The notes under the pieces are model-generated. The model searched no databases, was not told where the DNA came from, and worked only from the letters and a program-made list of their open reading frames with translations. The position numbers were made by a program, and so were the translations under genes. A stretch of 64,000 bases of DNA, from contig OZ257156.1 in the NCBI GenBank assembly GCA_965279375.1, forward strand, positions 2,016,001-2,080,000. Direction: 5' to 3'. Below, in pieces: positions 17,823 to 45,687 of this stretch (position 1 is the first letter of the stretch; each line of letters opens with the position of its first letter). The stretch comes from Gemmatimonas sp. (lineage in GTDB: Bacteria > Gemmatimonadota > Gemmatimonadetes > Gemmatimonadales > Gemmatimonadaceae).

Positions 17823-17963
17823 GAACGACTGTCTCGCTGCGATGAGAAACGTCGGTGCGCGCGCTGCGCACCTGCTCACCACCAACGACACACGTCTGCT
17901 TACGTCACGTCCTTCCCGTCGTCGAGGGCAACATTGTTACGTGCGCTCGAGCAAGGGCATTCT

Positions 17964-23501: not shown

Positions 23502-23778
23502 TCGCGACACGCAGCGTTTGATACGTGCGAGAGGCATCGGCATCGACAGCATCGAACGTGATACAGATGCGATGACGAAAACGCGTGCAGCCAACACGCA
23601 ACGTCAACGGCGGGTCTCGAAGCCGCAACAATCGGCGAGAAACGGATGGATCGCATGGCAGACTGCTCATCGCGCGTCCACCATTGCCTTCCCGCCGCCA
23701 AACCAACCACCGTGAACACTGCGTGTGGTGACTGCCCGGGTCGGCAGGTCTCACACGCTCGCTTTGGAGTACTTCGTC

Positions 23779-26700
23779 GTGTCCAGTTTTCTTCGCCACG
23801 GAATCTGCGTGGCCCTGTGCGTCGGTAGCATGGTCATGCTGCAGGCGTGCGACGACAAGGTCGTCGCTCCGGTGAAGCCACTCATTCGTTCGCTGGAGAT
23901 CTTTCCGAATCCCGCCACAGTGCGCGTGAACGAAGATCTCGTCATGGTCGCCAAGGTTCTCGCCGATTCTGGCGCAGACGTGTCGCTATCGTGGCAATCA
24001 TCCGACCCTCGACGCGTCAGCGTTTCGCCGACCGGAATCATTCGCGGCGTGTCCGTTGGTCCGGCGGTGTTGCTCGTGCAGAGCGACGCGGATCCGAATT
24101 TTTCCAGTGCCATTCCTGTTACGGTGACGCCTCAGTACACGGGCATCAGTGCGATCACGGCATCTCCGTTGGTCGTGACGCTGATTCCCGGTCAGACGCA
24201 ACCGATTTCCGCAACGGTCACGGCGGATCCCGGCGTCAACCGCGCCGTTCGCTACAGCATCGACAATCCGGCGGTCGCGACGATCTCCACGAGTGGTGTG
24301 GTGACTGCTGTCGCTGTCGGATCCGCGCGCGTGACTGTTCGCAGCGTAGTCGATACCAGCGCACAAACCAGTGTCCCGATTACGGTGCGCGCCCCTACCG
24401 GCGCGCGCGTGAGCATTCAGTCTGTCACCAGCCGAGGCACGAATCTGCCGGTCGACCTGCTGGACGTGCACGGCCAGGTGGATGTACTCGTCAATCTCGA
24501 GCCCGGTGAAGCGCAACTCTCGCGACTGGATCTCGTCGTCACCAATGCGGGGCGCGATACGATCGTCGCGTCGCAGAGCTTCACGGCCGCGCAGTCCGCG
24601 CGCGTCTTCGCAACGGGTACCAACGGCGCGGTGAGCGCTGGTGTTGTGGTGCAGAGCTTCCGCACCGACGCCTTCGATCCGCGCGTCGGCACGACGTACT
24701 TCAAGAACGGCGCAATCACCATCAAGGCGATCGCCGTCGATCTTGCACCCTCGGGCACCGCGCAACAATCCGCATCGAGCGCGCTCGGCGCGACCCTGAA
24801 CAATCGCGATGGGTTCCTCGTGCAGGTTCAGGCGCTTCCCACTACCGGTATTGCAACGGCGACCGACCCCGCCGGTCGGCGTTGGTTGCAGGCAGGCCGC
24901 GGACTCGCCGTGACGACAACGCCGGTGATCTTCTCCAACCGGTTGCTCGGCGCTCGCACTATTTCGTTTCCCGGCAACTCGCCCGTCGCGTCGATCACGG
25001 TAAACGGAACGACCGTGTCGGCCGACACCCTGCTGCTCCCGGCCAGCTACACGAGTCCCAATAGCGGCGACGGCTACGTCAACGGCGAACTGCCCAGTGT
25101 GCAGGCGTCGGATGTCCAGGGCAACGCGATCCCGTTGGTGCCCGCGCTGGTCAACGGCTCAGGCGGCGGCATCATGAACGTGCAGCCGTCGTTCACGACC
25201 GGTTTGCGACTCGAAGGACTTCGCGTGGACAACGCGCCACCGCCGGCGGCGACGCTGGTGCTCACCAGCACGGCCAACAACTCCAACAACTGGGTCAACG
25301 GCAGCTACGTCTTCGCGCAGGGGCTGCAGAACTTCGTGCAGGACCTGGGCGTCGGGTTGCGCGGTCCATCGGCGAATCTCACGCCGCAGTCGGCCGAAGT
25401 GACGTTCCTGGCGCTTGGTGGCGATCTGACCGACACCACAGAAGTGACCACGGGAGCAAACCTGCCGGCGTCCAGTTCCAATCTCACGTACGAGTTGATC
25501 GCACGGTACGCGGACCGCCTGGGGAACACGCGCTTCATTTCGCTGTCGGCTGTCGCCGGCGTGCATCCCGGTACGCGTTTCGGTGTGGATCTGTTGCCGC
25601 CGACGCTTCGCTACGCCAGAGATTCGGTCAGTGGTCGGACGTTGATCACCACCAACGCCGACTCCATCTTCGCATCGAACACAGCGGGTACTGGCCATCG
25701 TGTCTTCGCCGTCGATGCGATCGATGATCTCTCGGGGCTGCCGGCGGGTCGCGTGGCCGTGACGCTGCGGCGTTTCGGTCAACCCAGCCCTGCGAACACC
25801 TTCAACGGCACGTACACCTGCGTCATCGGCACGGGCGCGAACTGCGCGCCGGTGCTGCGCAACTACAGCGCGGTACTGCCGGATGACTATCGACAGGTGT
25901 CGGTGCTGGTCGATGACAGCACCGGTGTCGAAGGCTACTACCTGTTCAGCGCGACCGCGCAGGATCAGGCAGGCAACGTCAGCGCGCCGCGCACCAAGCG
26001 TGCGCTGATTGACGCGGGCACCGGCGCTTCCGCGCCGTCGATGACCGGACTTGGGCTGAGCGGGGTGCTCACGGGCAATCAGCCCGCTGCATTCCTCGCG
26101 CTCGCGTCGGACAACGTCGAACTTCGCAGCGGCGGCCTGCTCATTCGCTATCCGAATCTGCCTCTCACGAGTCAGATGCTGGCCTACGGGTTGCCCACGG
26201 GCGGCGGCACGACTCTCGGAGTCGCGTTCGATACGCTGCTCACGTCGCCGATCACGGGAAACCATCCCGCGTTCACGATTCCGAAGTTCATCCGCTCGAT
26301 GGAAGTCGTGGACACCCTCGATCGGCCGCCCACCGCTTCAGGCGTCACGTTGAAGCCGAACGCAGCGAATGCGTGGGTCACCGACTTCGCGTTCGGTGGT
26401 GCACCCTCATCGCTCCCCGCGAACATCACGATCGTTCCTGGCGCCGTGCAGTCGGCGACAACATCACCGGTGTTCGCCGGTAACATCGGAACGATTCGGG
26501 AGCTGCAGACGTGGCGGCGCGCCGGCATCAGCGGATTGCGTTTCGATGCGATCGGCCCGTCTGGCCAAGTGGCGCCGCCGTTCACACGCGTCGTGATCGC
26601 GCGTCTCGACAGCACAGCACTCGCCGTGAGCCCGGAGGCATGGCGCGTGGTTGGAGAGATCGCCGTTCCGGCCGGTGTCGACAACGGACTACGTCGCATC

Positions 26701-26799
26701 TGGAGTTGGGATTTCGGTGGATTGGGCACTGGGAGCTACATCGCCATCGGCGTCAATGCAGCGGGCGATGGCCTCATGACCCGCGTGGTGACGCCATGA
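23779..26799 (+). CDS. Large lipoprotein with two N-terminal bacterial Ig-like (Big_2-like) domains
   Basis: GGAG before GTG 23779; lipobox LQAC; WQSSDP..VSVS..G, NPAVATIS..G.VTAVAVG, DQAGN. Confidence 0.8.
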   Translation: MSSFLRHGICVALCVGSMVMLQACDDKVVAPVKPLIRSLEIFPNPATVRVNEDLVMVAKVLADSGADVSLSWQSSDPRRVSVSPTGIIRGVSVGPAVLLVQSDADPNFSSAIPVTVTPQYTGISAITASPLVVTLIPGQTQPISATVTADPGVNRAVRYSIDNPAVATISTSGVVTAVAVGSARVTVRSVVDTSAQTSVPITVRAPTGARVSIQSVTSRGTNLPVDLLDVHGQVDVLVNLEPGEAQLSRLDLVVTNAGRDTIVASQSFTAAQSARVFATGTNGAVSAGVVVQSFRTDAFDPRVGTTYFKNGAITIKAIAVDLAPSGTAQQSASSALGATLNNRDGFLVQVQALPTTGIATATDPAGRRWLQAGRGLAVTTTPVIFSNRLLGARTISFPGNSPVASITVNGTTVSADTLLLPASYTSPNSGDGYVNGELPSVQASDVQGNAIPLVPALVNGSGGGIMNVQPSFTTGLRLEGLRVDNAPPPAATLVLTSTANNSNNWVNGSYVFAQGLQNFVQDLGVGLRGPSANLTPQSAEVTFLALGGDLTDTTEVTTGANLPASSSNLTYELIARYADRLGNTRFISLSAVAGVHPGTRFGVDLLPPTLRYARDSVSGRTLITTNADSIFASNTAGTGHRVFAVDAIDDLSGLPAGRVAVTLRRFGQPSPANTFNGTYTCVIGTGANCAPVLRNYSAVLPDDYRQVSVLVDDSTGVEGYYLFSATAQDQAGNVSAPRTKRALIDAGTGASAPSMTGLGLSGVLTGNQPAAFLALASDNVELRSGGLLIRYPNLPLTSQMLAYGLPTGGGTTLGVAFDTLLTSPITGNHPAFTIPKFIRSMEVVDTLDRPPTASGVTLKPNAANAWVTDFAFGGAPSSLPANITIVPGAVQSATTSPVFAGNIGTIRELQTWRRAGISGLRFDAIGPSGQVAPPFTRVVIARLDSTALAVSPEAWRVVGEIAVPAGVDNGLRRIWSWDFGGLGTGSYIAIGVNAAGDGLMTRVVTP

Positions 26800-29660
26800 G
26801 TCTCCGGTGGGCAACACGACCGGTGCGTGCGGTGGTGATGGGAATCGTCCTTGTCGTCGTGCTTCCCGACTTCACGTCAGCGCAGACTCCACCGGTGCGC
26901 CCCGCACCGACAACGCCGACGCTTCCGCGGACCGCGCCTGCGCCGAACGTCGCGACGCAGCCGAGCAACACTCGCGGTCGTGTGACCGGCCGAGTGGTGG
27001 ATGTTGCCAGCGGGCAAGGCGTCGCCGATGTGCAGGTGATGATCGTCGGCACCACGTTGGGTGGCCGCACCGATCTCGACGGTCGCTACACGATTCTCAA
27101 CGTCCCCGTGGGTGCCATCTCCATCCAGGCACGGCGGCTCGGCTACCAGCCCAAGCAGTTCGAGCGCGTGGCGGTGTCAGCGACCGAGGCGACGATCGTC
27201 AACTTCACGATCGGTGCTGCGTCGGTTGAGTTGCAGTCGGTGGTGGTACGTGCCGCCGCTGGTGATCGCACCGCGAGTCAAGCGAGTCTGCTTGCTGCAC
27301 AGCAAAAGGCAGCCGCTGCATCCGACGGCGTGAGCGCGGAACAGATCAAGAAGACGCCCGACTCGAACGCCGGCGAAGCCGCGACTCGGGTGAGCGGCGT
27401 ATCCATTGTGGACGGCAAGTTTCTGGTGGCCCGCGGGTTGTCCGAGCGCTACAGCACGACGCTGTTGAACGGCGCTGAAGTGCCGAGTCCGGAGCCGACA
27501 AAGAAGCTCGTACCGCTCGATGTGTTTCCTGCGAGCCTGCTCGAGTCGATCGTTGTGACAAAGTCCGCGACGCCGGACAAGCCCGGAGATTTCTCGGGAG
27601 GCGCGGTCGAGATCAAGACGAAGGAGTTCCCAGACAATCCGATTCGGTCGTTCTCGTTGTCGCAGGGCTACAACTCGCAGACGACCGGTCGCTCGCTGCC
27701 TTTCCCGGAACGGCGCGCGCTGGACTTCTTCGGCTTCGACAACGGATTCCGCGAACCGCCCACGCGCAGCACGCTCGGAAACGGCAGCGCCTTCGAGCGA
27801 GAGCGATTTGCCGAAGGCGTTCGCAGTGCCTGGAAGCCGTCGATCGCTCGCGCGCTCCCCAACCTTGGCCTCGGCTTCACGCTGGGCAATCAACGGCCAT
27901 CGAAAGGGTTCGCAATCGGCTACGTCGTGTCGTTGACCTACTCGGGCGCGCGCGAATACTCGCAAGACCGATTGTTTCGGTACTATCTGGGCGAGGAGGA
28001 GCCGCAGCGCGCCTACGTCTATCAGGACTATCGGAACACGGTGGACTGGGGCGCCGTCGCCAACGTGTCGTTGCGACTTGGCTCCAACAACAAGATCAGC
28101 CTGAAGAATCTCTACACCCGCAATGCCGAAGAACTCTTCAGCACGAACGAAGGGATCAACATCGATCGCAACGGCGACGTGCGGAACTACCAGATGTCCT
28201 ATGTCGAGCGGCAGCTGGCGCAGAGCCAGCTTGCTGGCGAACACCTGCTGCGCTGGTTGTTGAACTCGCGTGTGGAGTGGAAGGCCACGCTGAGTGAGTC
28301 GTCGCGCAACGAGCCGGACAATCGCCAGGCGGAGTACGTGCAGGTGCCACAGACTGGCCAGTACGGGCTCAACTTCAACACCGACTTCTGGTATCGCACG
28401 CTCCAGGACAAGCAGCGGAGCTTCCAGGCGGACTGGCAGTTGCCGACGCGTCTGCTGTGGACGCCGATGACTTTCAAGGTAGGCGGCGCTGTACGACAGA
28501 AGCGTCGCTCCTTCGATGCGTATCTTGGCTCGTTCAACATCGACCAGAGCTCGCGTCCACCGGAAGACCTCAAGTATCTGCCGCCGGAACTGTTGTTCGC
28601 GCCCGAGAACGTCGGGACCTGGGTCAAGGTCGGGTTTCCCGGCGCCAGCGCCCAGCCGTACGACGCGAATGACGACGTCACGGCCGCGTATGCGCTGGTG
28701 GACATGAACATCGCCTCGCGTTTCCGCTTGGTTGCTGGCGCGCGTTCGGAAAACTGGTCCACCGATGTCTTCGACGGCGGAAAAGTACGGGCCGGGCTGG
28801 ACTCATCGCTCGTGCCGACCCGGCGCCGCGTGAAAGACATTCTTCCGTCCGCCAACCTGACCGTTGCGCTGTCGGAGCGGATCAATCTGCGACTCGCGGC
28901 CTTCCAGAGCGTGTCGCGCCCCGACACGCGCGAGCTGTCGCGCGACGAGTATACCGAGGTCTCCGGTTCCTGCGGAACGATTGGCAATCCCGAGTTGCAG
29001 CGCGGGCTGATCTACAATGCCGACTCGCGTCTCGAGTGGTATCCGCGTCCCGGGGAAATCGTGTCCGTCAGCGGTTTCTACAAGTACTTCCAGGATCCAC
29101 TGCTGCGCGTGGTGAGCGGCCGCAACGGCTGCACGTACGGCTACATCAACGGCGAGCACGCCGACAACTTCGGCGCGGAATTCGATTTCCGGAAAGACCT
29201 CACGTTCCTTCCTGGTTCGCTCGAGCGCCTGTCGGTAGGCGCGAACGTGACCGTCGTGAAGTCGAGCGTGTCCATCGCGCCACGGTTCGGTCAGTACACG
29301 CCCGGACTCGACCTCGAAGGCCAGTCGCCGTTTCTCTTCAATACCAGCCTTTCGTGGATTTCCGAAAAAGGCGGCGTGAACGCGAGTGTGTTGTACAACC
29401 GATTCGCGGATCGCATTGTGCGCTACGGGTACGCCTCCGCCAGTCTCGGGCAGGGCCCCAATATCGTCGAGGCGGGGCGTGGCATGCTCGACGCGAAGGC
29501 GCAGTTCGCGGTGGGACACGGGACCACGATCTCGCTGGCCGCGCGAAACCTCACCAACGCCCGCGTGGTCTTCCAGCAAGCCGTGAAGCCGGACAATGGT
29601 TTGACCGGCCGCTCCGTGCCCGGCGTCAGCCTCACGCTTGGGGTGTCCCTTGTCCGATAA
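26796..29660 (+). CDS. TonB-dependent receptor
   Basis: N-terminal carboxypeptidase-regulatory-like domain; plug RVSGVS..RGL.ERY...LNG; GNPEL; ATGA overlap with upstream gene. Confidence 0.9.
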   Translation: MSLRWATRPVRAVVMGIVLVVVLPDFTSAQTPPVRPAPTTPTLPRTAPAPNVATQPSNTRGRVTGRVVDVASGQGVADVQVMIVGTTLGGRTDLDGRYTILNVPVGAISIQARRLGYQPKQFERVAVSATEATIVNFTIGAASVELQSVVVRAAAGDRTASQASLLAAQQKAAAASDGVSAEQIKKTPDSNAGEAATRVSGVSIVDGKFLVARGLSERYSTTLLNGAEVPSPEPTKKLVPLDVFPASLLESIVVTKSATPDKPGDFSGGAVEIKTKEFPDNPIRSFSLSQGYNSQTTGRSLPFPERRALDFFGFDNGFREPPTRSTLGNGSAFERERFAEGVRSAWKPSIARALPNLGLGFTLGNQRPSKGFAIGYVVSLTYSGAREYSQDRLFRYYLGEEEPQRAYVYQDYRNTVDWGAVANVSLRLGSNNKISLKNLYTRNAEELFSTNEGINIDRNGDVRNYQMSYVERQLAQSQLAGEHLLRWLLNSRVEWKATLSESSRNEPDNRQAEYVQVPQTGQYGLNFNTDFWYRTLQDKQRSFQADWQLPTRLLWTPMTFKVGGAVRQKRRSFDAYLGSFNIDQSSRPPEDLKYLPPELLFAPENVGTWVKVGFPGASAQPYDANDDVTAAYALVDMNIASRFRLVAGARSENWSTDVFDGGKVRAGLDSSLVPTRRRVKDILPSANLTVALSERINLRLAAFQSVSRPDTRELSRDEYTEVSGSCGTIGNPELQRGLIYNADSRLEWYPRPGEIVSVSGFYKYFQDPLLRVVSGRNGCTYGYINGEHADNFGAEFDFRKDLTFLPGSLERLSVGANVTVVKSSVSIAPRFGQYTPGLDLEGQSPFLFNTSLSWISEKGGVNASVLYNRFADRIVRYGYASASLGQGPNIVEAGRGMLDAKAQFAVGHGTTISLAARNLTNARVVFQQAVKPDNGLTGRSVPGVSLTLGVSLVR

Positions 29661-32600
29661 GCGTATCGTCCGCCGCCGTACATGGATGGCGGTGCTGCTG
29701 GGCCTCACGCTCGGACAGAGCTGCAAGAGTTCCAGTGAACCCGGCGATCTGTCTCCGCCAACGGAACTGCAGGCCACCGCGCTCGGCGTGAACGCAATCG
29801 CGGTGACCTGGAAGCCGGCTGCGGGTGTCACCAGCTACACACTCGAGCGCCGGACCGATTTCGTCGGCCCATTCGAGGTCATCAAGGACGCGATCCGCGG
29901 CGACGGCGCAGCGCTCGTCAGCTACCTCGACACATCCGTCGAGCCGGAGCACTACTACGGCTATCGCGTGCGCGCGGTCGCGGCGTTGGGAGTTCGCTCC
30001 GATGTATCAACCGTGGCCGGCGCGCGCACGGCGCCCGTGCCCGGCGTGCGCATTCGCACCTCGACGTCGTTTGCGTCACCGGCGTCCGCTGACGCGGACG
30101 GATTCCTGGTGTCTGTGCGCGGTCCGCGCGACACCAGCTCGTTCGCTGTCGCCATCAATGGCGAGCGGCTGATCGCGCCGCTTCCCAAAGGGACCTACAC
30201 CGTCGTGCTGCGCGGACTGGCGATCAACTGCAGTCCGAGAACGCTGGGTGACACGGTCAAAGTCGTGCAGGTTTCGGACGAAGGGCTGAACACGATCGGC
30301 AACGCCGAGTTCAACGTCAGCTGCCGAGATCCAAAGAAGGCCAGCATCGTCACCACGGTGCGCGCCACGGGGGACACCGTGGATGCCGACGGTGTCGTGA
30401 TCACGGTGTCGGGCATCATTCGGGAAGCGGGCACGCCGGCCAACGAACGCGTGTACTTCCAGTCGCGCACGCTGCAAGGTGCCACTCCCGCTGCGCGCTT
30501 TGACGATCTGCGTCTGGGCGACTACGAGATCACGATCAGTGACGTGGAAGCGCCGTGCGTGCTCGACGGCGAACGCCTGCGCACGCTCCAGCCCAAGGCG
30601 CTCGCGGTGGACACGGTGGCGTTCGCGCTCACCTGTCTCAAGCCCGTGGCGCCGGTCGATACCGCAGGTCGGCCGCTCGTGCTTCGACAGGTCTGGTCGG
30701 CTGCGTCCGCGCGTCCGGGTGACAAGGTCTCGCTGCTGACATCGCTCGACCTCCGTGCGCGCCCGGCGCTGCTCGCGGCCGGCGTGACCGGCACGATCCG
30801 CTTCGACAATACGGTCGTGCGATTCGACAGCGCGCGCACGACGCGTGCGTTCCAGGTGACGGCCAACAATCTCGCGCAGCCCGGCATTCTCGCCTTCGCC
30901 GCCGCGCAGACGGATGATCCTGCCCTGCCAGGCAACATCGACATTCTGCGCAGCTGGTACACCGTGATTGGCGCCGTCGGCGCGACGGTCACCACCAACA
31001 CGACGATCACCGACGTCATCTCGTCGACACAAACCAAGTTGACGAGTCAAACACGCGCGGCAGAGGGAACGCTCACGGTCAGCAACACGACGACGAGTCC
31101 GAATCAGGCGCCGACCGCCGTCATCACCGGGCCTACTGCTGGCGCCGTGGGCGCGTCGCTGTCCTTCTCCGGCAGTCAGTCGAGCGATCCGGATGGCAGC
31201 ATCGCGTCGTATGCGTGGAACTTCGGCGATGGTCAATCCGGTACCGGCGCGACGGTGACGAAGAGCTACAGCACCGCCGGCACGTACACCGTTCGCCTCA
31301 CCGTGACGGACGCGCAGGGTGCAACGGGAACGAAGGATCAGCAGGTCGTCATCACCGCATCGGCACCGACCACCGGAAGCGTCGCAGGCACTGTGACGTC
31401 ATCGCTCGGTGGAGGACTTGGCGGCGTCACGATCACAGTCACGGGTGGGTTGACTGCAACAACGGCGGCAAACGGCAGTTACAGCGTCGCGAATGTTGCA
31501 CTCGGCTCACGCACCGTGAGCGTCAGTGGTGTGCCGAGCAACTGCACGGCGCCCGCAGCGCAAACGGTTACCGTCGCGGCGGGCGCAAGTTCGACGGCGA
31601 ACTTCACGGTCACTTGTACGACAACGGGTGGCGGCGCGACGACCGGTACGTTGAATGGTCGCGTCACACGCGTCAGCGATGGCAGCGGCATCGGATTCGC
31701 GCGCATCACCATCACGCCAGCGGGTGGCAGCGCGCTCACGCCGGTGAACACGGCCGTCGACGGCAACTATGCCGCGTCAGGTGTGCCCATCGGCAGCGGA
31801 TCCAATGCAGGGTCGGGTAGCATCACCGTGGACAATCTGCCGAACGGTTGCACCATTCCGGCAGCGCAGCCGTACAGCGGACTCACCGCGAATGGCACGG
31901 TGACAGTCAGCGTTGCAGTCACGTGCGCCGTCGCCACGACGGGCACGCTCACGGGACGCATCACGCGCAGCACCGGCGGTGACGCAGCGGGCGTGAGTGT
32001 CACGGTCACACCGACGGGCGTGTCGGCGCTGCCTGCGGTGACCACGAACAGCACGGGCACCTACACGGTTACGAATGTGCCTGCGGGTGGCGGTGCGCTT
32101 GCGCTCGCGTCGTTGCCGACTGGATGCACGCCTCCCGCGAGCCTGACGTACAGCGGACTCACGGCGGGCGGATCACTCACGAGAGACCTCGTGCTGAACT
32201 GCGTGGCCGGACCGCACACCTATCCGGTGACGGCCACGTGGGGAGCGGTCACGACAGGCGGCCCGACAGGTCGTCAGGTGACGCTTACGATCGCTGTCGA
32301 CATGGGTAGCGCACCCGGTCGACCGGATGTCGCTGGCAATGCAGCCGATCCGATGGCCGCCATCACGCTCGCGGTCGCGTACGACTCGACGAAGTTGGCC
32401 TATCAATCCCGCACGCTGTTGTCGCCGAACGAGTTCGATCTGGGCATCGCCGGCACTGTCGCCGACACTATCCCCGCCAATGCTGGACAAAAGATCACCA
32501 CCGTTGCAGTCGCGAGTTCGGCGGGCGTGGTGAAGACTGGTTCGTTCCAGCTTGTCAGGGTCCTGATGAACATCCGCACCGTGGGTGCTGGCACCGTTAC

Positions 32601-32712
32601 TCCCACGCTCACGGTCAGACAAATGCTCGCGGACACTTTTGCTGCACCGCAGAAGAACGTGACCTCGAGCGTGGTGGTGCAGCCCATTCCGACATTGACG
32701 ATTCCACCCTGA
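29650..32712 (+). CDS. Modular lipoprotein: FN3, Ig-like, cohesin-like, PKD, 3 Cys-paired repeats, C-terminal cohesin-like
   Basis: Lipobox-like GQSC; YGYRVRAV (FN3); SDPDG.I.SY.WNFGDG (PKD); TTG start inferred. Confidence 0.82.
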   Translation: MSDKRIVRRRTWMAVLLGLTLGQSCKSSSEPGDLSPPTELQATALGVNAIAVTWKPAAGVTSYTLERRTDFVGPFEVIKDAIRGDGAALVSYLDTSVEPEHYYGYRVRAVAALGVRSDVSTVAGARTAPVPGVRIRTSTSFASPASADADGFLVSVRGPRDTSSFAVAINGERLIAPLPKGTYTVVLRGLAINCSPRTLGDTVKVVQVSDEGLNTIGNAEFNVSCRDPKKASIVTTVRATGDTVDADGVVITVSGIIREAGTPANERVYFQSRTLQGATPAARFDDLRLGDYEITISDVEAPCVLDGERLRTLQPKALAVDTVAFALTCLKPVAPVDTAGRPLVLRQVWSAASARPGDKVSLLTSLDLRARPALLAAGVTGTIRFDNTVVRFDSARTTRAFQVTANNLAQPGILAFAAAQTDDPALPGNIDILRSWYTVIGAVGATVTTNTTITDVISSTQTKLTSQTRAAEGTLTVSNTTTSPNQAPTAVITGPTAGAVGASLSFSGSQSSDPDGSIASYAWNFGDGQSGTGATVTKSYSTAGTYTVRLTVTDAQGATGTKDQQVVITASAPTTGSVAGTVTSSLGGGLGGVTITVTGGLTATTAANGSYSVANVALGSRTVSVSGVPSNCTAPAAQTVTVAAGASSTANFTVTCTTTGGGATTGTLNGRVTRVSDGSGIGFARITITPAGGSALTPVNTAVDGNYAASGVPIGSGSNAGSGSITVDNLPNGCTIPAAQPYSGLTANGTVTVSVAVTCAVATTGTLTGRITRSTGGDAAGVSVTVTPTGVSALPAVTTNSTGTYTVTNVPAGGGALALASLPTGCTPPASLTYSGLTAGGSLTRDLVLNCVAGPHTYPVTATWGAVTTGGPTGRQVTLTIAVDMGSAPGRPDVAGNAADPMAAITLAVAYDSTKLAYQSRTLLSPNEFDLGIAGTVADTIPANAGQKITTVAVASSAGVVKTGSFQLVRVLMNIRTVGAGTVTPTLTVRQMLADTFAAPQKNVTSSVVVQPIPTLTIPP

Positions 32713-32767
32713 TGAATGACGACGCGGCGCGATGTTGCGTCGCACGTGGTGTCGTGACACAGAACCG

Positions 32768-32804
32768 ATCGTGGCGCGTTGCGAGTATCGCAGTGCGCCA
32801 CGAT
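32768..32804. terminator. Long hairpin after the 23779-32712 operon
   Basis: ATCGTGGCGCGTTGCGA-gta-TCGCAGTGCGCCACGAT. Confidence 0.55.
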
Positions 32805-32814
32805 TCGCGTTTGA

Positions 32815-32946
32815 TGTATCGACAGCTGTGTCGCGCTCTGCATCGGTCTCAGCGTCGACATTCAAAGTGAACGATGCATCGGCAATTGTATCGACGACTG
32901 CATCGCGAATTGTATCGAGCATTGTATCGACCGTTGCATCGACATC
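32815..32946. repeat. Degenerate 12-bp-period array, 11 in-phase units, core TGYATCG
   Basis: Core at 32815, 32839, 32875, 32887, 32899, 32911, 32923, 32935; degenerate units at 32827, 32851, 32863. Confidence 0.85.
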
Positions 32947-33103
32947 GCGATCGCATGCGCATGCAACATCGTGTTCGACCGTGCGCGTGCGAACCTGTAA
33001 CATCTGCAGAGGGCCGATCTTTGATACAGAAGAAAGGTTTGGTTTGTGACAGGGGTCTCCGATGATAGGGCCGTTGGTCCCCCCCTGGTCTTTCCGCACG
33101 AGC

Positions 33104-33263
33104 GCACGACAACGGCAAAGCTGACGAAAGTCAGCGACGCAAAACCACGAAGCTACCGCGCAAACACTTCTTGATTCTCGACAGCAATGCGTTGCGCATT
33201 GTGGTCGCAATCATCGCCCTCAGGGCAACACCGCTTTGCGCCATGCTGGTCGGGTCACCGAAC
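33104..33263 (+). ncRNA. c-di-GMP-I (GEMM) riboswitch with enlarged P3
   Basis: GGCAAA, GCTGAC-GAAA-GTCAGC, GACGCAAAACC...AGCTAC...ATGCTGGTCGGGTCACCGAA; lies in the 5' UTR of 33320. Confidence 0.85.
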
Positions 33264-33319
33264 GAACGAGCTGGAACGGACCTCTTGCTAACACCAATCG
33301 CGTAAGAGGTTTTCTCCAC

Positions 33320-35116
33320 ATGCAAAGTTTTGCGAACATTGGTCGCCGCGTTTCGGCGTTGACCGCCCTCCTCGCACTCGGCGCGTGCGCCGAGCAGAAT
33401 GCTCCAGCTCCTGTCGCGCCTGTGCTTCCGGGCGTCTCGGCGATTCCGACGCAGTATCGCGGCGCCGCGTTCATCATGGACGTGAGCTCGACGCGCAAGA
33501 CGGTGCGCATCACCGCGCCGTCCTCGAGCATCAACTCGCGCCTGAATCCGAACGTGCTCTCCGGCGACGCGAACTACTCGCTGCTCGGCGGTGACGCCAT
33601 CGAACTGGTCACCAGCAACTTCCAGGCTGGTGCACTTGGTGCCGTGGCGCCGAACAAGATCCTGATCACGTTCGACATGCAGATCCTCAACAAGCTCGCG
33701 GGTCTGCGCCTCGACACGCCGACGTTCCCGACTCCGCCGTCTGGCGTCACGGGTGTGCAGGCGTTCCCGTTTGAAATCAGCGTCACCAGCTCTGCCGGCA
33801 GCGTCGGCTCGAGCGGCAATGAAGTCGTCGTGACCACCCCGCGTGGTGGTGTGGTGGAGCCCAGCAGCGATTGGGGCAACCTGCCCCTCGGCGATGGCAA
33901 CAACCACAACTTCTTCAACGATGTTGGTTGCACGGCCACGTCGAACGATTGCTTCCGCTACGAGCCGTTCGCCGCTGTTGGACCGTCGGGCACGTCCGCC
34001 GCGCAGCGCGTCGGCTTCCTGATCGATCCGACCGTTGGTGACTTCCGCGCGAAGATCATCGTTGCGGCCGATCTTGCCCCGGCCGTTGCTGCGGCCCCGG
34101 GCACGGTTGACGGCACGGTGACGTCCAACATCGGCCCGGTCTCCGGCGCCACGATCTCGGTGACGGGTGGCTTCACGGGCACGTCCAGCGCGACGGGCAC
34201 GTACTCCATCGGCAGCGTCACGTCGGGCCCGAACAAGACGGTCTCGATCTCGAACCTCCCGGCTGGTTGCACGGCGAACCAGGCCTCGTTCAACAACCTG
34301 ACCGTTCCGGCGGCTGGTACGCTCACGCAGAACTTCGTCCTCACGTGCGCTGTCCCGACGGGCGGCATCACGGGCACGATCACGAAGCAGCAGGACGGTT
34401 CCGCGCTGGTCGGTGTCAGCGTCGTTGTGACGCCGAACGCTGGCGCCGCGCTCGCCGCTGTGACGACGGCCGCCAATGGTGGCTACAACCGCTCGGCCGT
34501 GCCGACGATCCCGAACAACGGCACGATCACGCTGTCGAACCTGCCCGCTGGTTGCGTCAACGCTGGCCCGTACACGTACACCGGCCTCACCACGGGTGGC
34601 CTGGTTCGCGACATCGTCGTGAGCTGCCCGCCGGCCCCGGTGACCTACGCGCTGACGGGCACGTGGACCACGACCGGCTCGCTGCCAGGCACCCGCACGG
34701 CTCGCCTGACGTTCGCCGTCAACATGGGCTCGGCCCCGGGTAACCCGACGATCAACGGCACCGCCGCTGACGAACTCGCCGGCATCACGATCGGCGCGAA
34801 CTACAACGGCACGCAGCTCACGTTCGCCAACCGCAGCGGCCTGCTCGATCCGCCGTTCGACCTCGGCATCGCCGGCACGGTCGGTGGTGGCACGGCCAAC
34901 GCGACGACGACGATTGCCGTCACGTCCGGCAGCGGCGGCACGCAGGCGGGCGCGTTCACGCTCGTCTCGCTGAACTTCACCATCCCGGCTGGCGTCGCGA
35001 GCGGCACGTCGATCACGCCGACCATCACCGTCAACCAGGCTCTGGCCGGTGTCGGTGGCGCGAGCAACGTGACGTCGAGCTTCACGGTCAGCGTCCCGGC
35101 CCTGATCGTCCCGTAA
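33320..35116 (+). CDS. Probable major surface lipoprotein: head domain, 2 Cys-paired Ig-like repeats, cohesin-like C-terminus (paralog 3)
   Basis: AAGAGG SD; lipobox LGAC; strongly biased codons. Confidence 0.88.
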   Translation: MQSFANIGRRVSALTALLALGACAEQNAPAPVAPVLPGVSAIPTQYRGAAFIMDVSSTRKTVRITAPSSSINSRLNPNVLSGDANYSLLGGDAIELVTSNFQAGALGAVAPNKILITFDMQILNKLAGLRLDTPTFPTPPSGVTGVQAFPFEISVTSSAGSVGSSGNEVVVTTPRGGVVEPSSDWGNLPLGDGNNHNFFNDVGCTATSNDCFRYEPFAAVGPSGTSAAQRVGFLIDPTVGDFRAKIIVAADLAPAVAAAPGTVDGTVTSNIGPVSGATISVTGGFTGTSSATGTYSIGSVTSGPNKTVSISNLPAGCTANQASFNNLTVPAAGTLTQNFVLTCAVPTGGITGTITKQQDGSALVGVSVVVTPNAGAALAAVTTAANGGYNRSAVPTIPNNGTITLSNLPAGCVNAGPYTYTGLTTGGLVRDIVVSCPPAPVTYALTGTWTTTGSLPGTRTARLTFAVNMGSAPGNPTINGTAADELAGITIGANYNGTQLTFANRSGLLDPPFDLGIAGTVGGGTANATTTIAVTSGSGGTQAGAFTLVSLNFTIPAGVASGTSITPTITVNQALAGVGGASNVTSSFTVSVPALIVP

Positions 35117-35132
35117 CGACTCTAGATCCGAC

Positions 35133-35165
35133 GCCTGGGCTGGCGCGACATGCGCCAGCCCAGGC
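35133..35165 (+). other. Intercistronic 14-bp perfect stem-loop without U tail
   Basis: GCCTGGGCTGGCGC-gacat-GCGCCAGCCCAGGC. Confidence 0.75.
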
Positions 35166-35198
35166 TACGGTCCCCCTCATATTTCGGAGACACACCTC

Positions 35199-37496
35199 AT
35201 GAAGGGCTTTACTTTCCGGGGCGCCACGATCGGTCTGGCGTCGCTCGGACTTTTGGCTGCCTGCGACCGGAGCGAGATGCCCAGCGCGCCTGCGGCGCCG
35301 CTGGCCGCCCGCTCCAACCTGGCGCTCGAAGTCTCGAGCCTCACCGCCCGTACTGGTGACACGGTCGCCGTCGCGCTTGCGAACGGCACCGGCCTCGAAG
35401 TCGGTGGCGTGCAGGGCACGCTCCGCTTCGACCCGTCGCAGCTGCGCTACCTCGGCCAGCTTCGCGATGGCTCGAGCGAGCAGATCATGATGATCAACGC
35501 CAAGGACGCCGCCCGCGGCGAACTGCAGCTCGTCGTCGCCGACGGCAAGGGCATCGATCACAGCCAGCCCGTGCTCTTCGCCGTGGTCAACAACGGCTAT
35601 TCCGCCGGTCTCGACTTCGACGTGATCGACGCGACGCTCAACAGCTCCCCGGTTGCGCGCGTCAAGATGTCGGTGGAAGACGGTGTGCAGGTCAACGGTG
35701 CGCTGGCCCACTCGGGCACGCCGTCGACGATGTCGCTGCAGGATTGGAAGCAGGCGCTGGGTGGTGACGTCTCGCGCGATCCGGGCGAAGTCCGCAACGG
35801 ACTCGTGTTCGGCGATACCGATTTCAGCGGCGCGCTCGACCTCGTCGACGCGCTGTACGTGATCAACGTGCTCGTCGGCAACGCCGAAATCATCGTCGGC
35901 ACCGACGGCTCGGGCCCGAGCGGCGATCGTGACGGCGTGGTGGCCGCCAACGTGCAGCCGTTCAACCTGCCGGGTCTCGGCGAAGTTGGCGACGCGACTC
36001 CCCCGGGCCTCGAGCCCGATGGCACGCGTCAGATCGCACTCGATGACGCGCTCGCGATCATCAACGAGTTCGTGGGTAACAACCAGTCCGTGGTCGGCGA
36101 AATCATCCCGGGCCGTCCGGCTGCGCCGGCGACCAACCGCGTGCTCGTCGGTGACCCGGCGGTCGGAACGACCAACATCACGACGAACACCACGTGGACG
36201 AAGAACAACATCTACGAGCTGATCAACGAAGTCGTGGTGACCGGTGGCGCGACGCTGACCATCGAGGCCGGCACGCTCATCGAAGGCCGTCAGGGCCAGG
36301 TCGTTGGTGGTGTCTCTCAGGACGGCTCGGCGCTGTACATCGCGCGTGACGGCAAGATCAACGCGGTGGGCACCCCGTTCGAGCCGATCGTCTTCACCTG
36401 CAAGGGTGCCAAGTCGAAGGGCTGCTGGGGCGGCATCTCCATCCTCGGCAACGCCTCGAACAACCGCTCCGGCACTGCGACGAGCCCGGTCATCGCGGGC
36501 CGCGCGCCGACGGGTGGCTGCCTCGAGACGGCGTCGGAAGGCCGCACCGCGAAGCTCTACGGTGGCTGCAACGACGACGATGACAGCGGCACCCTGCGCT
36601 ATGCGCGCATCGAGTACGCCGGCTTCCGCTTCACGGCCACGAATGAGCTGAACGGCCTGGCGCTGTACGGCGTGGGCCGCGGCACGACGCTCGACCACAT
36701 TCAGGTGCACGCCGGCCTGGACGACGGCATCGAGTTCTTCGGTGGCACGGTGAACGCCAAGTTCCTCTATCTCACGGCCAACTCGGACGACTCGTTCGAC
36801 TTCACCGAGTCGTTCACGGGCAACGTGCAGTTCGTCGTCGTCCAGCAGGACTCGCTCGATTCGGACAAGGGTCTCGAGATGGACAACAACAACGTGAGCG
36901 TTGCACTGCACAGCACGACGCCGCGCTCGGCGCCGAAGCTGTACAACTTCACGGTCGTTGGTAAGCAGTTCGTGACCAGCACGTCGGGCGCCGCCGGCAA
37001 CAACTCCGTGGGCGGTCTGCACGCGCGCGTTGGCGCCCTGCCGAAGATGTTCAACTTCATCGTCCAGAACTTCCCGTTTGCGCTCGACCTGGACGACGCG
37101 GCCACCGGCGACAACTGCGGCACGGCCACGGGCCTGCAGCTGACGAACTCGATCTTCGTGCAGAACACGCGTCTGGACGCGTCCGACACCGGCGATCCGG
37201 CCACGTGCGGCGCTGACGAAGCGGCGTTCATCAGCAACCCGGCCTACAACAACACGACGACGGGTTCGAGCCCGCTCATCAGCCCGCTCAACGTGCTGGT
37301 GCCGGACTTCCGTCCGGCGTTCGGCTCGGCTACGGGCGGTGTCGCCCCGCCGGCGAGCCCGGTTGGCGCTCCGGCTGGCTTCTACGACGTCACCGCCACG
37401 TACATCGGCGCCGTGAAGCCTGCAGAAGCGACGAAGAACAACATCCCGTGGTACGCTGGCTGGACCCGCGGCTGGGCCACCGCTTCCACTCCGTGA
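35199..37496 (+). CDS. Lipoprotein: cohesin-like, dockerin-like and beta-helix domains
   Basis: Lipobox LAAC; GDTVAV..GVQGTLRFDPSQLRY; GDTDFSGALDLVDAL; DDSGTLRYARIEYAG, ELNGL, DDGIEFFGG. Confidence 0.88.
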   Translation: MKGFTFRGATIGLASLGLLAACDRSEMPSAPAAPLAARSNLALEVSSLTARTGDTVAVALANGTGLEVGGVQGTLRFDPSQLRYLGQLRDGSSEQIMMINAKDAARGELQLVVADGKGIDHSQPVLFAVVNNGYSAGLDFDVIDATLNSSPVARVKMSVEDGVQVNGALAHSGTPSTMSLQDWKQALGGDVSRDPGEVRNGLVFGDTDFSGALDLVDALYVINVLVGNAEIIVGTDGSGPSGDRDGVVAANVQPFNLPGLGEVGDATPPGLEPDGTRQIALDDALAIINEFVGNNQSVVGEIIPGRPAAPATNRVLVGDPAVGTTNITTNTTWTKNNIYELINEVVVTGGATLTIEAGTLIEGRQGQVVGGVSQDGSALYIARDGKINAVGTPFEPIVFTCKGAKSKGCWGGISILGNASNNRSGTATSPVIAGRAPTGGCLETASEGRTAKLYGGCNDDDDSGTLRYARIEYAGFRFTATNELNGLALYGVGRGTTLDHIQVHAGLDDGIEFFGGTVNAKFLYLTANSDDSFDFTESFTGNVQFVVVQQDSLDSDKGLEMDNNNVSVALHSTTPRSAPKLYNFTVVGKQFVTSTSGAAGNNSVGGLHARVGALPKMFNFIVQNFPFALDLDDAATGDNCGTATGLQLTNSIFVQNTRLDASDTGDPATCGADEAAFISNPAYNNTTTGSSPLISPLNVLVPDFRPAFGSATGGVAPPASPVGAPAGFYDVTATYIGAVKPAEATKNNIPWYAGWTRGWATASTP

Positions 37497-37510
37497 CCTG
37501 ATTCATACAC

Positions 37511-37598
37511 AGTCTACGGAGACGGCGAGTCGTCGTCTCCGTAGACTATGTAGATCGACGCGTGTTGCGGGGGGGCGCCATCTGGCGCTTCCCCGTTT
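37511..37598 (+). terminator. Two tandem hairpins after 35199..37496
   Basis: AGTCTACGGAGACGGCG-agt-CGTCGTCTCCGTAGACT, then CGGGGGGGCGCCA-tc-TGGCGCTTCCCCG-TTT. Confidence 0.7.
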
Positions 37599-37631
37599 CG
37601 CGTCTCCCGACGACTGGTCTCCAGATCCCTC

Positions 37632-38963
37632 ATGTCCTCGTCGCTCCGCCGCCTGTTGGCGCGACTCGCGCTCCCCGCGCTCACCGTTGTCACCGTCGCC
37701 AGCTGCGTTACCGACGCTGCCACCGGTCCGACGCGTCAGCCGCCGTACCTCGCGATTCTCATCAACGTCGATGCGCCGAAGGAGCTGGCCACCGGCGGTC
37801 CGTACACGTTTCGCGTTCGTGAGCTCTCTGGCACGATCAAGTTCGACACGACCTTCCGCGCGTCCGTCCGCGACACGGTGATCATTCCCGTCACGGCGGC
37901 CACGTACCGCGTCGACATTTCCGACGTGCCGGCCACCTGCGGCGTGCGTGACGGCAACGCACAAGCGATCGTGGTGCCGCCCAACACGAACACATCACTC
38001 ATTCGCTTCTCGCTGACGTGTTCTGCGTCGCTCGTGGTGGCCGCCGCCGTCGACGGCTTCGGGATCGATTCCGAGTTCGTGGTGACCGTACAGGACAGCG
38101 CTGGCAAGGAGATTGGTGCCATTCTGCCGGCCAATGACACGATTCGACTCGAAGGAATCGCAGCGGGTCGCTACGATGTGACGCTGCGCCACGTGGCCGA
38201 TAACTGCGTCGTCATCAGCGATGGCGGACTCGTAGTGCCGGTCACGATCCGTCCGTCCGGTGGGGCCTTTGTGCCCTTCCGCGTGATCTGCTCAGAGGTA
38301 GCCAAGCGTCCGCGCATCACGCTGCTCGCCGGCACGTACGCGGACGGGTCGATCGGGTATGTGATTCGAGCGGCAGATCCGGACCGTGACGTGGAACGCA
38401 CCTTCGTGGACGTCACCGATTGCAATCAACGCTCGGTGCTCCCCGGCGGCGGACGACGACGTGGCGCATTCGGTGGCTGGCCGAACGTGACCGGTCGCGA
38501 CACGGCGGTGATCATGGGGGCGTACGATCTCAACGTCTCCGACTCACTCTTCACCAATCGCTGCCTCGGCGCGTGGGTGGCCGACAGCCGTGGCAACACC
38601 TCTGCCTTCGTCGAGATTCCGCTCAGGCGCAGCGATGTCGCGCGTCGACCCGTCGTGAGCGCCTTCAACGGGCGGCTGAACGGCACCAAAAGCATCTTCG
38701 TCGATCTGACCGTGCGCGATCCGGACAACGACTTCGTGGGCCTCTTCACCGTCTATCTCGTGCGCGACGGTGTGCTGAGTGCGTCCGACGGCGTGCCAGA
38801 CCGCGTCGTCTTTCAGCCGGCGGGTGTGCTAGGCAACACCGTGCCTGAATTCCTCGTCAACATCGGCTTTGGCAATTGGAACGACTACTTGGGCGTCGTG
38901 CTCTATGCCTTTGACCGTGCGGGCAACTTCACCCGCATGCAGGACCTGACGCTCGAGTTCTGA
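37632..38963 (+). CDS. Lipoprotein with Cys-paired Ig-like repeats
   Basis: Lipobox VASC; DVPATC..FSLTC, VADNC..FRVIC; DPD.D and D.AGN motifs. Confidence 0.75.
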   Translation: MSSSLRRLLARLALPALTVVTVASCVTDAATGPTRQPPYLAILINVDAPKELATGGPYTFRVRELSGTIKFDTTFRASVRDTVIIPVTAATYRVDISDVPATCGVRDGNAQAIVVPPNTNTSLIRFSLTCSASLVVAAAVDGFGIDSEFVVTVQDSAGKEIGAILPANDTIRLEGIAAGRYDVTLRHVADNCVVISDGGLVVPVTIRPSGGAFVPFRVICSEVAKRPRITLLAGTYADGSIGYVIRAADPDRDVERTFVDVTDCNQRSVLPGGGRRRGAFGGWPNVTGRDTAVIMGAYDLNVSDSLFTNRCLGAWVADSRGNTSAFVEIPLRRSDVARRPVVSAFNGRLNGTKSIFVDLTVRDPDNDFVGLFTVYLVRDGVLSASDGVPDRVVFQPAGVLGNTVPEFLVNIGFGNWNDYLGVVLYAFDRAGNFTRMQDLTLEF

Positions 38964-42308: not shown

Positions 42309-45300
42309 ATGACCAGTCTGCCCTTGGGATCGCCCGCGACACCCGCTCCGGCCACCGCCGAACTCGCCCCCGACACCGTCCGCCGCCTGCGTGAGCTGGC
42401 CGCCCGTTGGGCCGACGTCGGCGCGGCCGAGCGCGCCAACTACCAGCTCTACCTCATCGAGCTGTGCGACGCGATCGGCGTCCCCCGCCCGAAGCCGGCC
42501 GCGACCGGCGACCGGGTCGCCGACAGCTCCGCGTACCAGTTCGAGTTCGCGATCAAAACCACCACGCGCGACGGGGCGATCGCCACGAACTACATCGATC
42601 TGTACAAGGCGGGGTGCTTTGCGCTGGAGGCGAAGGACTCCGACGACGGGACCACGACCACAAGATTGCTGACCAAGGCCTTTGGGCAGGTGTCCAACTA
42701 CGCCAAGGATCTGCCGGAGCGTCCGCCGTACATCATCGTGCTGGATGTCGGTAAGACGATGATTGTGTGGGATCGCTGGTCGGGGTCGTACGGCGGCTAC
42801 CACCTGGGCACGCGCATCGACCTGCGTGCGCTGGACTCCAGTGCCTCTAACGTTGCGTTGCTGCGCGACATCTGGACCGAACCGGCGGTGCGCGACCCTC
42901 GGCGGCACGCACAAAAAATCACGGTGGAGATTGCGGGGCTGCTGGCCGAACTCGCGGCCACACTCGAACAGCGCGGACACGATCCGGAACGCGTGGCGCG
43001 GTTTCTGATTCGTTGCGTGTTCTCGATGTTTGCCGAAGACGTGAAGCTGTTGCCCGACGCGTCGTTCAAGAATCTGCTGCACGCCGTTGCCGACGGTGGC
43101 CCCGATGCGTTTGTGGAGGCCGCCCAGGATCTATGGAGAGCAATGGATGTGGGCGGACGCTTTGGTTATCACCGCCTGCTGCGCTTCAACGGCCATTTCT
43201 TTGCCAACGCCGAGGCGTTGCCGCTCGAGCGTGCCGAACTAGAGCTGTTGCGCCGTGCGGCAGACGCTGACTGGAGCGCGGTCGAGCCGTCGATCTTTGG
43301 TACGCTGCTCGTTCGTGCACTCTCGGCCGAAGAACGGCACCGGCTGGGCGCGGAGTACACGCCGCGTGATTTCATCGAGCGGCTGGTGCGGCCGACGGTG
43401 GAAGAGCCTGTGCGCGAGCGGTGGACGGCGGTGCAGGCGGAGGTGCTGCAGCTGCGCGAGCGCGCACGACCCACGGATATTCGCGCGGCTGAAACGCGAC
43501 TGCTGGAGTTTCACGCGTGGCTACGTGGACTGCAGATTCTCGATCCGGCGTGCGGGAGCGGCAACTTTCTGTACGTGACGATGCATGCGCTCAAGCGCGT
43601 GGAAGTGGAAGTGTTCCGCTTGCTGGCCGACGTGCAGGGCGGGCAGACGAGCGTGCGCATGGCGGAGATCGATCCGGGGCAGTTTCACGGTATCGAGGTG
43701 AAGGCGTGGGCGCGCGAAATCGCCGAGCTGACGTTGTGGATTGGCTTCCATCAGTTCTGGCGGCAGCAGCATGGTGATGTACAGCCTGACGAACCGTTGC
43801 TGCGCGACACGGGCACGCTGGAGCATCGCGACGCCGTGCTGGCGTGGGACAGCATTCGGCATGTGCCGGAGAAGGACCGGCCGGACCCGACGCCGCGCAT
43901 TGTGCATCCGGTAACGGGGCAGTTGGTGCCGGATCCGAACGCGAAGCTCAAGTACATGGAGTACGTGGGGGCCAGAGCGGCTGAGTGGCCGCAGGCGGAT
44001 TTCATTGTGGGGAATCCGCCGTATTTGGGTAATAAGCGAATGCGCGAGGCGTTTGGCGACGGGTATGTCGATGCGCTGCGTGGCGCGTACTCGGACGTTC
44101 CGGATAGCATCGACTTCGTGATGTACTGGTGGGTTCGTGCAGCGCGCGAGGTCGCCGTTCGTCGGACGATTCGTGCGGGACTGATCACGACCAATTCTAT
44201 CACGCAGACCTTTCATCAGCCGCTTCTTGCCGAAGCCGCGAGCATAGGTGCTCAGATCGTCTGGGCCGCTCCGGATCATCCTTGGGCAGATGGATCAGAT
44301 GCTGCTGCGGTTCGAGTCGCGATGACTGTACTCGCGCGTGGAATCACATTCGCTACAAGGGTCGACGTGGACGAGCGCGGAGCTGTCGTTCTCTCGCGTC
44401 AAGTCTCGCGGTTGAACTCAGACCTGTCCGCGGACGCCGACGTGCCAACCGCGGCAAGTGTTCCGCTGCGGTCGAATGGTGGATGCTCTTGTCGTGGAGT
44501 GACGCTTGTTGGTGCCGGCTTCCTAATTGACCGCAGATGAAGCGTCGTCGCTCGTAAGGTCTGATCCAAGCAACTCAGAGGTGATCCGTGCCTATAGAAA
44601 TGGACGTGACCTCATGGCGCGAGGAAGAGACGTATACGTCATCGATTTTGCAATGAAGTCGGAAAACGAGGCACGTCACTTCGCTGTGCCCTTTGACTTG
44701 GTGCGGTCACGAGTGAAGCCTGAACGCGACGGAATGCGCCGCGATTCACGGCGGAAGTACTGGTGGAGGTTCGGCGAACCCAATCCGAAACTTCGGAGGT
44801 TGGTGGCCGACTTGACTCGGTACATCGCGACGCCCTATGTGGCAAAGCATCGCCCCTTCATGTTCTTGGATGCTCGAACCGCACCGGACGACAAAGTAGT
44901 AGTGGTTGGCTCAGACCAAGCATGGATTCTCGGTGTGCTCTCTTCCGCGATTCATGGTGGGTGGGCGCTGGCTGCAGGCTCACTTCTCGAGGATCGACCG
45001 ACCTACAACAATCCACGCTGCTTCGACCCCTTCCCCTTCCCCGACCCTCCCGCCGCTCTCCGCGCACAAATCGCCACCCTCGCCGAGTCCCTCGACGCAC
45101 ACCGCGCCGCCGCCATCGCGCGTGACGAACGCGTCACCATGACCGGCATGTACAACGTCGTCGAGAAGCTCCGCTCCGGCGACCAGCTCACACCCAAAGA
45201 ACGCACCGTCCACGAACTCGCGGCCTGCGGCATTCTGCGCGACATGCACGATCAACTCGACGCGCTCGTCGCCGAGGCGTACGGATGGTCGTGGCCGCTC

Positions 45301-45687
45301 TCCACGGAGGAGATTCTCGACAAGCTCGTCGCGCTGCACGACGTGCGCGTGGCCGAGGAGGCGCAGGGGATCGTGCGCTGGCTGCGTCCGGAGTTTCAGG
45401 CGCCGCAGTCGGCTATGGCTGCTCCCGTCGCTGAACTGGCGCTGACAACCAACGTGAGCGCCGCTGCTGCTGTCGCCGAGCCCACGCCTTGGCCGGCGCA
45501 GGCCATCGAACAGATCTCGGCGCTCAAGCGTCTCGTCACCACACACACCCTGAGCGTCGACGATGCCATGCAGCAGTTCAGCGGCGCCAGACGCGAGCTT
45601 GTGGAGCGGCATCTGGAAACGCTCGCCATTCTGGGCGAGGTGCGCGTGGTGGAATCGGGGCGGTACAGCGCGGTGGCAGCGTTCTGA
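42309..45687 (+). pseudogene. MmeI-like (type IIL/IIG) restriction-modification enzyme, split by a frameshift near 44526
   Basis: IDLYK..FALEAK nuclease, DPACGSGNF, GNPPY, LITTNSI; second frame has F.PFPFP and H..LD.LV..AYGW. Confidence 0.85.

Follow-up and report, generated by a model that had tools for sequence, protein, structure and literature searches.

The window, by which we mean the whole stretch of 64,000 nucleotides of Gemmatimonas sp. DNA analyzed here (its genome is designated G000), carries two adjacent genes for predicted lipoproteins on its plus strand, preceded by a candidate regulatory RNA at 33104-33262. The first gene (33320..35116) encodes a protein of 598 aa with the lipobox LGAC, for which the structural model (pLDDT 86, 92-sequence alignment) predicts a beta-rich N-terminal domain, two CnaB/transthyretin-like domains (residues 258-438) and a C-terminal cohesin fold (residues 441-598). 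The top 13 structure matches of this C-terminal part are all cohesins (Z 14.6, rmsd 2.2, 134 residues aligned). The second gene (35199..37496, +) encodes a predicted lipoprotein of 765 aa (model pLDDT 91) with a cohesin-like domain (residues ~40-165) that matches cohesins at E about 1e-4, a predicted beta-helix (residues 310-757, Z 22.7) and, at residues ~200-300, two modelled helices following Asp-rich loops, whose sole PDB sequence match is a dockerin with a weak E-value of 0.7. Complex prediction for the cohesin domain and the dockerin-like region gave a score of 0.06 (mark 0.32), and a Pfam search of the window's own proteins for cohesin and dockerin returned no match. The pair resembles cellulosomal and non-cellulosomal cohesin-dockerin modules in the predicted cohesin fold of both lipoproteins and in possible dockerin-like repeats of the second, but differs from them in its Gemmatimonas-like host, its lipoprotein anchors and the missing Pfam matches. 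A surface assembly is likely.

A 14-bp hairpin without a U tail (35133..35165, +) separates the two genes, and a strong hairpin is present here in 7/7 loci; it likely stabilizes the mRNA of the first gene or raises its level. Intergenic hairpins of this kind set stoichiometry in cellulosome operons. An earlier note on this DNA had termed the product of the first gene the major subunit, and its place as the first gene after the promoter with a strong hairpin behind it lends this designation indirect support. The upstream genes on the same strand encode proteins with RCC1, Big_2, TonB-receptor plug and PKD domains. A run of large surface-protein genes extends from 20724 to 38963 (RCC1 repeats, Big_2, TonB-dependent receptor, PKD/Fn3, cohesin-fold lipoproteins), has paralogues at 17070-19778(-) and could be the genetic basis of a surface assembly of cohesin-dockerin type in Gemmatimonadota. 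Long reverse-strand ORFs (32173-33210 and 33131-33907) overlap the region, and an MmeI-like type IIL restriction-modification gene spans two overlapping ORFs at 42309-45687, perhaps because of a frameshift.

Aptamer and ligand pocket

The default Rfam scan, which covered the 64-kb window, returned RF01051 as its sole match. The match lies at 33104-33262 (+) and scores 62.3 bits against a cut-off of 35 (E 8.8e-10, model positions 1-87), with 74 nt aligned as a local insertion. The covariance-model search that the earlier note had proposed as a check was therefore positive with the insert left in place. An E-value scan of 32900-33400 yielded nothing beyond RF01051, two overlapping clan matches being left out, and in the whole-genome search the aptamer was the genome's only RF01051 match. 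The suspicion that the insertion hides the element from standard scans holds in part: the window scan found the whole aptamer, whereas the whole-genome search returned only its 5' 57 nt (33104-33160, 40.2 bits), and among five orthologous copies Rfam recovered three whole, truncated one and missed one. The long P3 arm lowers or abolishes Rfam detection in some scans.

When read off the RF01051 alignment, the equivalents of G14, G20, C44 and A47 in the Vibrio cholerae Vc2 riboswitch are 33108, 33114, 33138 and 33141, and those of G83, C92 and C93 are 33249, 33258 and 33259. According to the accessible parts of two studies, c-di-GMP is contacted by G20, A47 and C92, and A20 characterizes the cGAMP variant (PMC6140456, PMC4744006); here, all three contacts are canonical (G33114, A33141, C33258). 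The C44-G83 contact, which the accessible text of PMC11705072 describes as essential together with the tetraloop-receptor contact, would be formed by C33138 and the bulged G33249, while the GAAA tetraloop of P2 (33120..33135, placed by sequence and RF01051 alignment) would dock into the receptor-like internal loop CUAC/CAUG of P3 (33144..33255). The earlier note had read the underlying motifs correctly, i.e., GGCAAA at 33114, P2, GACGCAAA at 33136, GGGTCACCGAA at 33252 and the ATG at 33320, as well as GCGCAAA/TTTGCGC (33158/33235), CAATGCG/CGCATTG (33185/33195) and GCCC/GGGC (33216-33226), and its P3 pairings are those of the P3 minimum-energy fold.

The aptamer is placed in the 5' UTR, 57 nt ahead of the ATG at 33320, and orthologous loci are alike. 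It shares with Vc2 (RF01051) the equivalents of G20, A47, C92 and C44-G83, the P2 GAAA loop combined with a P3 receptor-like loop, the AAA linker and the 5'-UTR position ahead of a surface-protein gene; unlike Vc2, it has an A47-C92 distance of 117 nt instead of 45, a branched P3 tip and a predicted leader-linker helix outside P1. Vc1 of V. cholerae is similar in keeping the G20/A47/C92 equivalents, in its longer P3 (A39-C104, 65 nt) and in preceding a surface protein gene, but its extension amounts to ~20 nt compared with 70 here, and the accessible text on Vc1 describes no branch (PMC4744006). For the riboswitch class as a whole, a second stem of variable length, a 5' position and surface-related genes are mentioned in the part of PMC1950547 that was available. 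Judged by sequence, the segment 33104-33262 is almost certainly a real c-di-GMP-I riboswitch, and it likely senses c-di-GMP.

The predicted branched extension of P3

Beyond the receptor loop and the distal stem of P3 (33158-33164/33235-33241), a 70-nt insert (33165..33234, +) occupies the tip of P3, where single-sequence folding predicts a three-way junction from which a long 17-bp arm with interruptions (33172-33213) and a short hairpin (33216-33226) emerge. Both extra hairpins described in the earlier note are present, the one with 7 bp being the tip of the 17-bp arm. The distal part of P3 folds better than shuffled sequences (z -3.34, p 0.003, 300 shuffles). Long P3 stems of 112-124 nt occur in ten distinct sequences, from 6/87 genus genomes and from metagenome contigs, with the same lipoprotein gene downstream, and in each of them the distal P3 is predicted to fold independently, with a long interrupted arm and a short hairpin above a closing stem. 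The combination of long and short arm appears in 10/10 sequences as opposed to 2-11% of 300 inner shuffles for each, in a test that was written after the folds had been seen and on sequences some of which are close kin (76-91% identity). The inner z-scores of the ten inserts range from -0.8 to -3.6, and hardly any base inside the insert is invariant, with pairwise identities of mostly 43-64% outside the close pairs. The core of P3 comprises 14 pairs, and 140/140 cells are paired across the ten sequences; in the closing stem, 3/5 pairs have undergone double changes. Because RNAalifold found no consensus pairs, and thus no formal covariation, within the insert on a MAFFT alignment, conservation of the insert's shape rests on single-sequence folds.

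Several simple explanations for the insert were rejected. It does not represent another known RNA family, as no match to other Rfam families was obtained up to an E-value of 10, nor a dispersed repeat, as elsewhere in the own genome nothing matches it better than at an E-value of 0.08. Two other inserts, compared with five relatives, gave no match above 40 nt in a search so insensitive that it missed a 76%-identical orthologous insert. A small upstream ORF was likewise discarded: an ATG is found within the insert in 4/7 loci, at differing positions.

Removal of the insert in silico shifted the switching energy by no more than 0.4 kcal/mol, and the insert is therefore most likely a tolerated decoration, probably neutral for the switch; from its predicted folds we read it as an arm whose self-contained folding is under selection. 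The proposal that it is a working module needed by the switch, be it a protein-binding site, an RNase site or a device for co-transcriptional delay, strikes us as unlikely. Such a module would fit the retention of the insert in all ten distinct members, its one shape and its narrow length, since the A47-C92 distances of all loci retrieved, a sample biased by the patterns used and cleared of one value of 220 as a false pairing, amount either to 46-65 nt (59 sequences) or to 116-128 nt (12 sequences), with none between. It would also fit the longer platform of insert-bearing loci (~50 nt to the start versus ~20 nt). The near absence of invariant bases, the unaltered equilibrium switching upon computed removal and the lack of any other Rfam match argue against it, and the retention is accounted for if the insert arose once and misfolded variants were then selected against. 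Whichever role the arm has, the long-P3 form is a new structural variant of this riboswitch class, confined to one lineage, and it shows that, throughout a lineage, the c-di-GMP-I fold can retain an arm of 70-80 nt, predicted to be branched, at the tip of P3. Riboswitch class, ligand and tolerance at the P3 tip were already to be expected, and the surprise is moderate. Within the freely accessible main texts searched, no paper joined a c-di-GMP riboswitch with Gemmatimonas or matched the description of such an insertion, and none of the papers mentioning Gemmatimonad riboswitches/c-di-GMP or cohesin/dockerin treats the present element, as judged by title; published alignments may contain long-P3 examples.

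Expression platform and direction of the switch

The Shine-Dalgarno (SD) sequence AAGAGG (33304-33309) lies in a strand (33302..33310, +) that is paired with an anti-SD strand (33280-33288) in the free ensemble. The SD-sequestering hairpin proposed in the earlier note, ACCTCTTGC/GTAAGAGGT at 33280/33302, was confirmed and refined to 11 bp with a loop of 13 nt. The note did not address insert conservation or the direction of the switch, and it overlooked a leader arm at 33087..33097 (+) that is predicted to pair with 33270-33282 in a helix termed P0. The linker (33270..33288, +) thus contains the 3' arm of P0 overlapping the anti-SD strand; further upstream, 33073-33078 can also pair with 33294-33299 according to prediction.

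The pair probability of the SD hairpin is 1.00 in the free RNA and 0.90 in the binding-competent fold, while that of P0 rises from <0.0001 to 0.10 and its cost falls from 6.5 to 1.4 kcal/mol under a bound-state constraint that imposes P1 and is thereby biased towards P0. In transcripts that include the leader arm (starts 33070-33086), SD opening becomes 3.9-9.6 kcal/mol cheaper once the binding-competent fold is imposed, compared with shifts of +1.2 and -0.1 kcal/mol for starts without it (33094 and 33100, respectively). Since opening is eased only with the leader arm, a leader-dependent ON switch is predicted. The best leader-linker duplex falls into the P1 register in 9/9 sequences; it beats shuffled leaders (p<0.05) in just 3/9, and cognate combinations have no advantage over cross pairs. 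Of eight relatives, four (G080, G025, G074 and L077) show almost no gain in SD opening; G107 and L079 gain ~1-1.4 kcal/mol, G028 gains 0 to 2.5 kcal/mol, and in L080 the effect is for the most part in the opposite direction. The modelled prediction of an ON switch is strong for the own genome, whereas most relatives yield a weak one or none at all, and all in all we regard a translational ON switch as reasonably probable.

The opposite direction, a translational OFF switch in which the 3' strand of the free aptamer holds the anti-SD strand until the ligand releases it to lock the SD, appears improbable. By inspection of the sequence, GGGUC (33252-33256) can indeed pair with 33279-33283, the SD hairpin remains prevalent in the bound ensemble and the shift in L080 is positive; in the model, however, the SD hairpin has already reached its full probability in the free state, such that binding cannot add repression. 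Equally improbable is control at the transcript level instead of initiation, whether by termination, weak intrinsic or Rho-dependent, or by the release of a stable leader RNA. In the own genome, a short U run does follow the 11-bp hairpin, and Vc2 is reportedly subject to RNA-stability control, going by the title of a preprint (10.1101/617340). On the other side stand the 13-nt hairpin loop, the terminator scan, which found no terminator on the plus strand, and the U run itself, which is not conserved: it comprises 4-5 U after the SD in just 2/7 loci, three in one and fewer in the other four. The SD hairpin and the result of the terminator scan together favour translational control, as the earlier note had assumed.

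In the account of PMC11705072, as far as accessible, the stem equivalent to P1 is completed upon ligand binding. For the ON switch that we favour, the following course is proposed. Transcription would start near 33073, from a promoter box that appears to be older than the riboswitch. As long as the ligand is absent, the weak P1 would stay open and the anti-SD strand 33280-33288 would lock the SD. With the ligand bound, P1 would close and extend outward into P0, the leader 33087-33097 would capture 33270-33282, and the SD hairpin would open; the insert would meanwhile fold on itself past the tetraloop receptor and leave the balance of the switch unaffected. At high c-di-GMP, the cell would then make more of a surface assembly of lipoproteins that contain cohesin-fold modules. 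The balance tips modestly in favour of the reading as a whole, namely that a c-di-GMP-I riboswitch with a self-contained, branched insert of likely decorative nature likely binds c-di-GMP and would turn lipoprotein translation ON. Surface lipoproteins with predicted cohesin folds would then provide this little-studied phylum with a first concrete target of c-di-GMP. A link of the island to a sessile/motile switch, as drawn in the earlier note, may exist, going by general knowledge of c-di-GMP.

Promoter, distribution and changes at position 20

A conserved promoter-like box is located at 33023..33066 (+) and consists of GATACA (33023), GTGAC (33046) and, 10 nt later, a putative -10 element GATGAT (33061-33066), from which a transcription start near 33073 was inferred. 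The pattern G(A/G)TAC-N14-22-(G/C)T(G/T)AC-N10-nAnnnT, which was derived from the homologue loci themselves, occurs in 21/30 of them versus 4/6000 shuffles. It is found three times genome-wide, two of these ahead of the own gene and its paralogue (G000:C1:3056202(-)); a sigma-70 consensus scan did not call the box at 33023-33066. The distance from box to start is 247-267 nt in nine loci with the riboswitch and 60-134 nt in twelve loci without it, which suggests that the riboswitch was inserted between an older promoter and the gene. The box precedes the gene family with or without a riboswitch, and its TGT(A/G)AC-like repeats could serve as binding sites for an unknown activator. RNA data from one run (share 0.06) of one study provided four contigs over 18 kb, two on the leader (33076-33228, and a relative's with a different 84-nt insert, also from ~33076) and two at 34984-35394; such contigs cannot show a start and were not used as support.

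RF01051 matches were present in 33/61 genomes (60 relatives and the own genome), most of them 76-101 nt long, and most of the 37 loci examined lie just upstream of genes with lipoprotein-like N-termini. In Gemmatimonadales, most c-di-GMP-I aptamers are situated ~15-30 nt before genes with lipoprotein-like signals (L002-L040, L116-L145), which suggests a surface-lipoprotein regulon across the group. The downstream protein itself was matched in 9/87 genus genomes; five of these (G028, G107, G080, G025 and G074) have a full-length orthologue, and a long-P3 aptamer lies upstream in 5/5. A model built on the long P3 detected six long copies in the 87 genomes, none of them new. A pattern scan of metagenome contigs retrieved 13 loci, nine with a long and four with a short P3, and the orthologue follows in 8/9 of the former, the remaining one ending at the contig edge. 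At the family level, the protein is present in 24/401 genomes, and when Rfam was run on 20 of the 30 loci returned, one riboswitch (G677) emerged, again with a long P3. A GC island was considered and rejected: the 1-kb GC content of 0.62-0.69 compares with 0.65 for the window, yet the gene is patchy.

In a tree of 25 proteins, the ten riboswitch-bearing genes fall into one group (SH-aLRT 91), which also holds two genes without riboswitch, the own paralogue C1:3056042 and a gene of G100. The simplest reading of this topology is one gain of the riboswitch and two losses. These losses within the clade, together with the little computed coupling in 5/8 relatives, would be in keeping with an aptamer that binds its ligand yet is uncoupled from expression or decaying. 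We consider this very improbable, as hardly any variation is seen in the pocket, P2 and proximal P3 although the downstream proteins are just 50-68% identical. The close paralogue G000:C1:3054510-3056042(-) has an N-terminal domain that is 74% identical, and its promoter box is kept. In G100, remnants of the aptamer 3' end and of the linker (L053) precede a gene that seems to have decayed and that branches within the riboswitch clade.

Position 20 is a G in 7/10 long-P3 sequences and an A, each time with a G at position 19, in 3/10 (G028, G080 and L080). These three relatives resemble the GEMM-Ib 3',3'-cGAMP riboswitch of Geobacter, which has A at position 20, in contrast to the own copy with G33114. 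The A20 genes do not form one group in the protein tree (p-AU 3.5e-42): G028 is the sister of the G000 pair, whereas the sister of G080 is G025. Position 20 has thus changed at least twice. Hypr GGDEF enzymes, defined by Ser in place of Asp in the available part of PMC6456294, were not seen in G000 or in the draft genomes G028 and G080, a further difference from GEMM-Ib: Asp is present in 17/18 GGDEF matches of G000 and in 24/26 of G028 and G080 combined, and the remaining three matches are without the motif. For the own copy, this agrees, together with the presence of G20/C92, with the preference of the earlier note for c-di-GMP-I over 3',3'-cGAMP. Since no Hypr GGDEF was seen and A20 riboswitches can bind c-di-GMP via a protonated adenine, as stated in the accessible portion of PMC6140456, A20 more likely reflects tuning of c-di-GMP affinity than a switch to cGAMP. 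Natural G20/A20 sister alleles on the same gene offer a test of such tuning in hosts without a Hypr enzyme. A more far-reaching scenario is in our opinion rather doubtful. In it, a Gemmatimonas lineage would have gained an enlarged c-di-GMP riboswitch ahead of an older promoter-gene pair, the branched P3 arm would be a second, working module, repeated G20/A20 changes would retune the ligand response, and the switch would control the amount of an undescribed assembly of cohesin-dockerin surface lipoproteins.

Outside the long-P3 group, A20 also occurs in aptamers L018, L020, L022, L023 and L026-L029, and C is found at this position in L024 and L035. In G039, three RF01051 aptamers are arranged in tandem, ~157 nt apart, at both C36:1983-2385 and C3:4761-5163.
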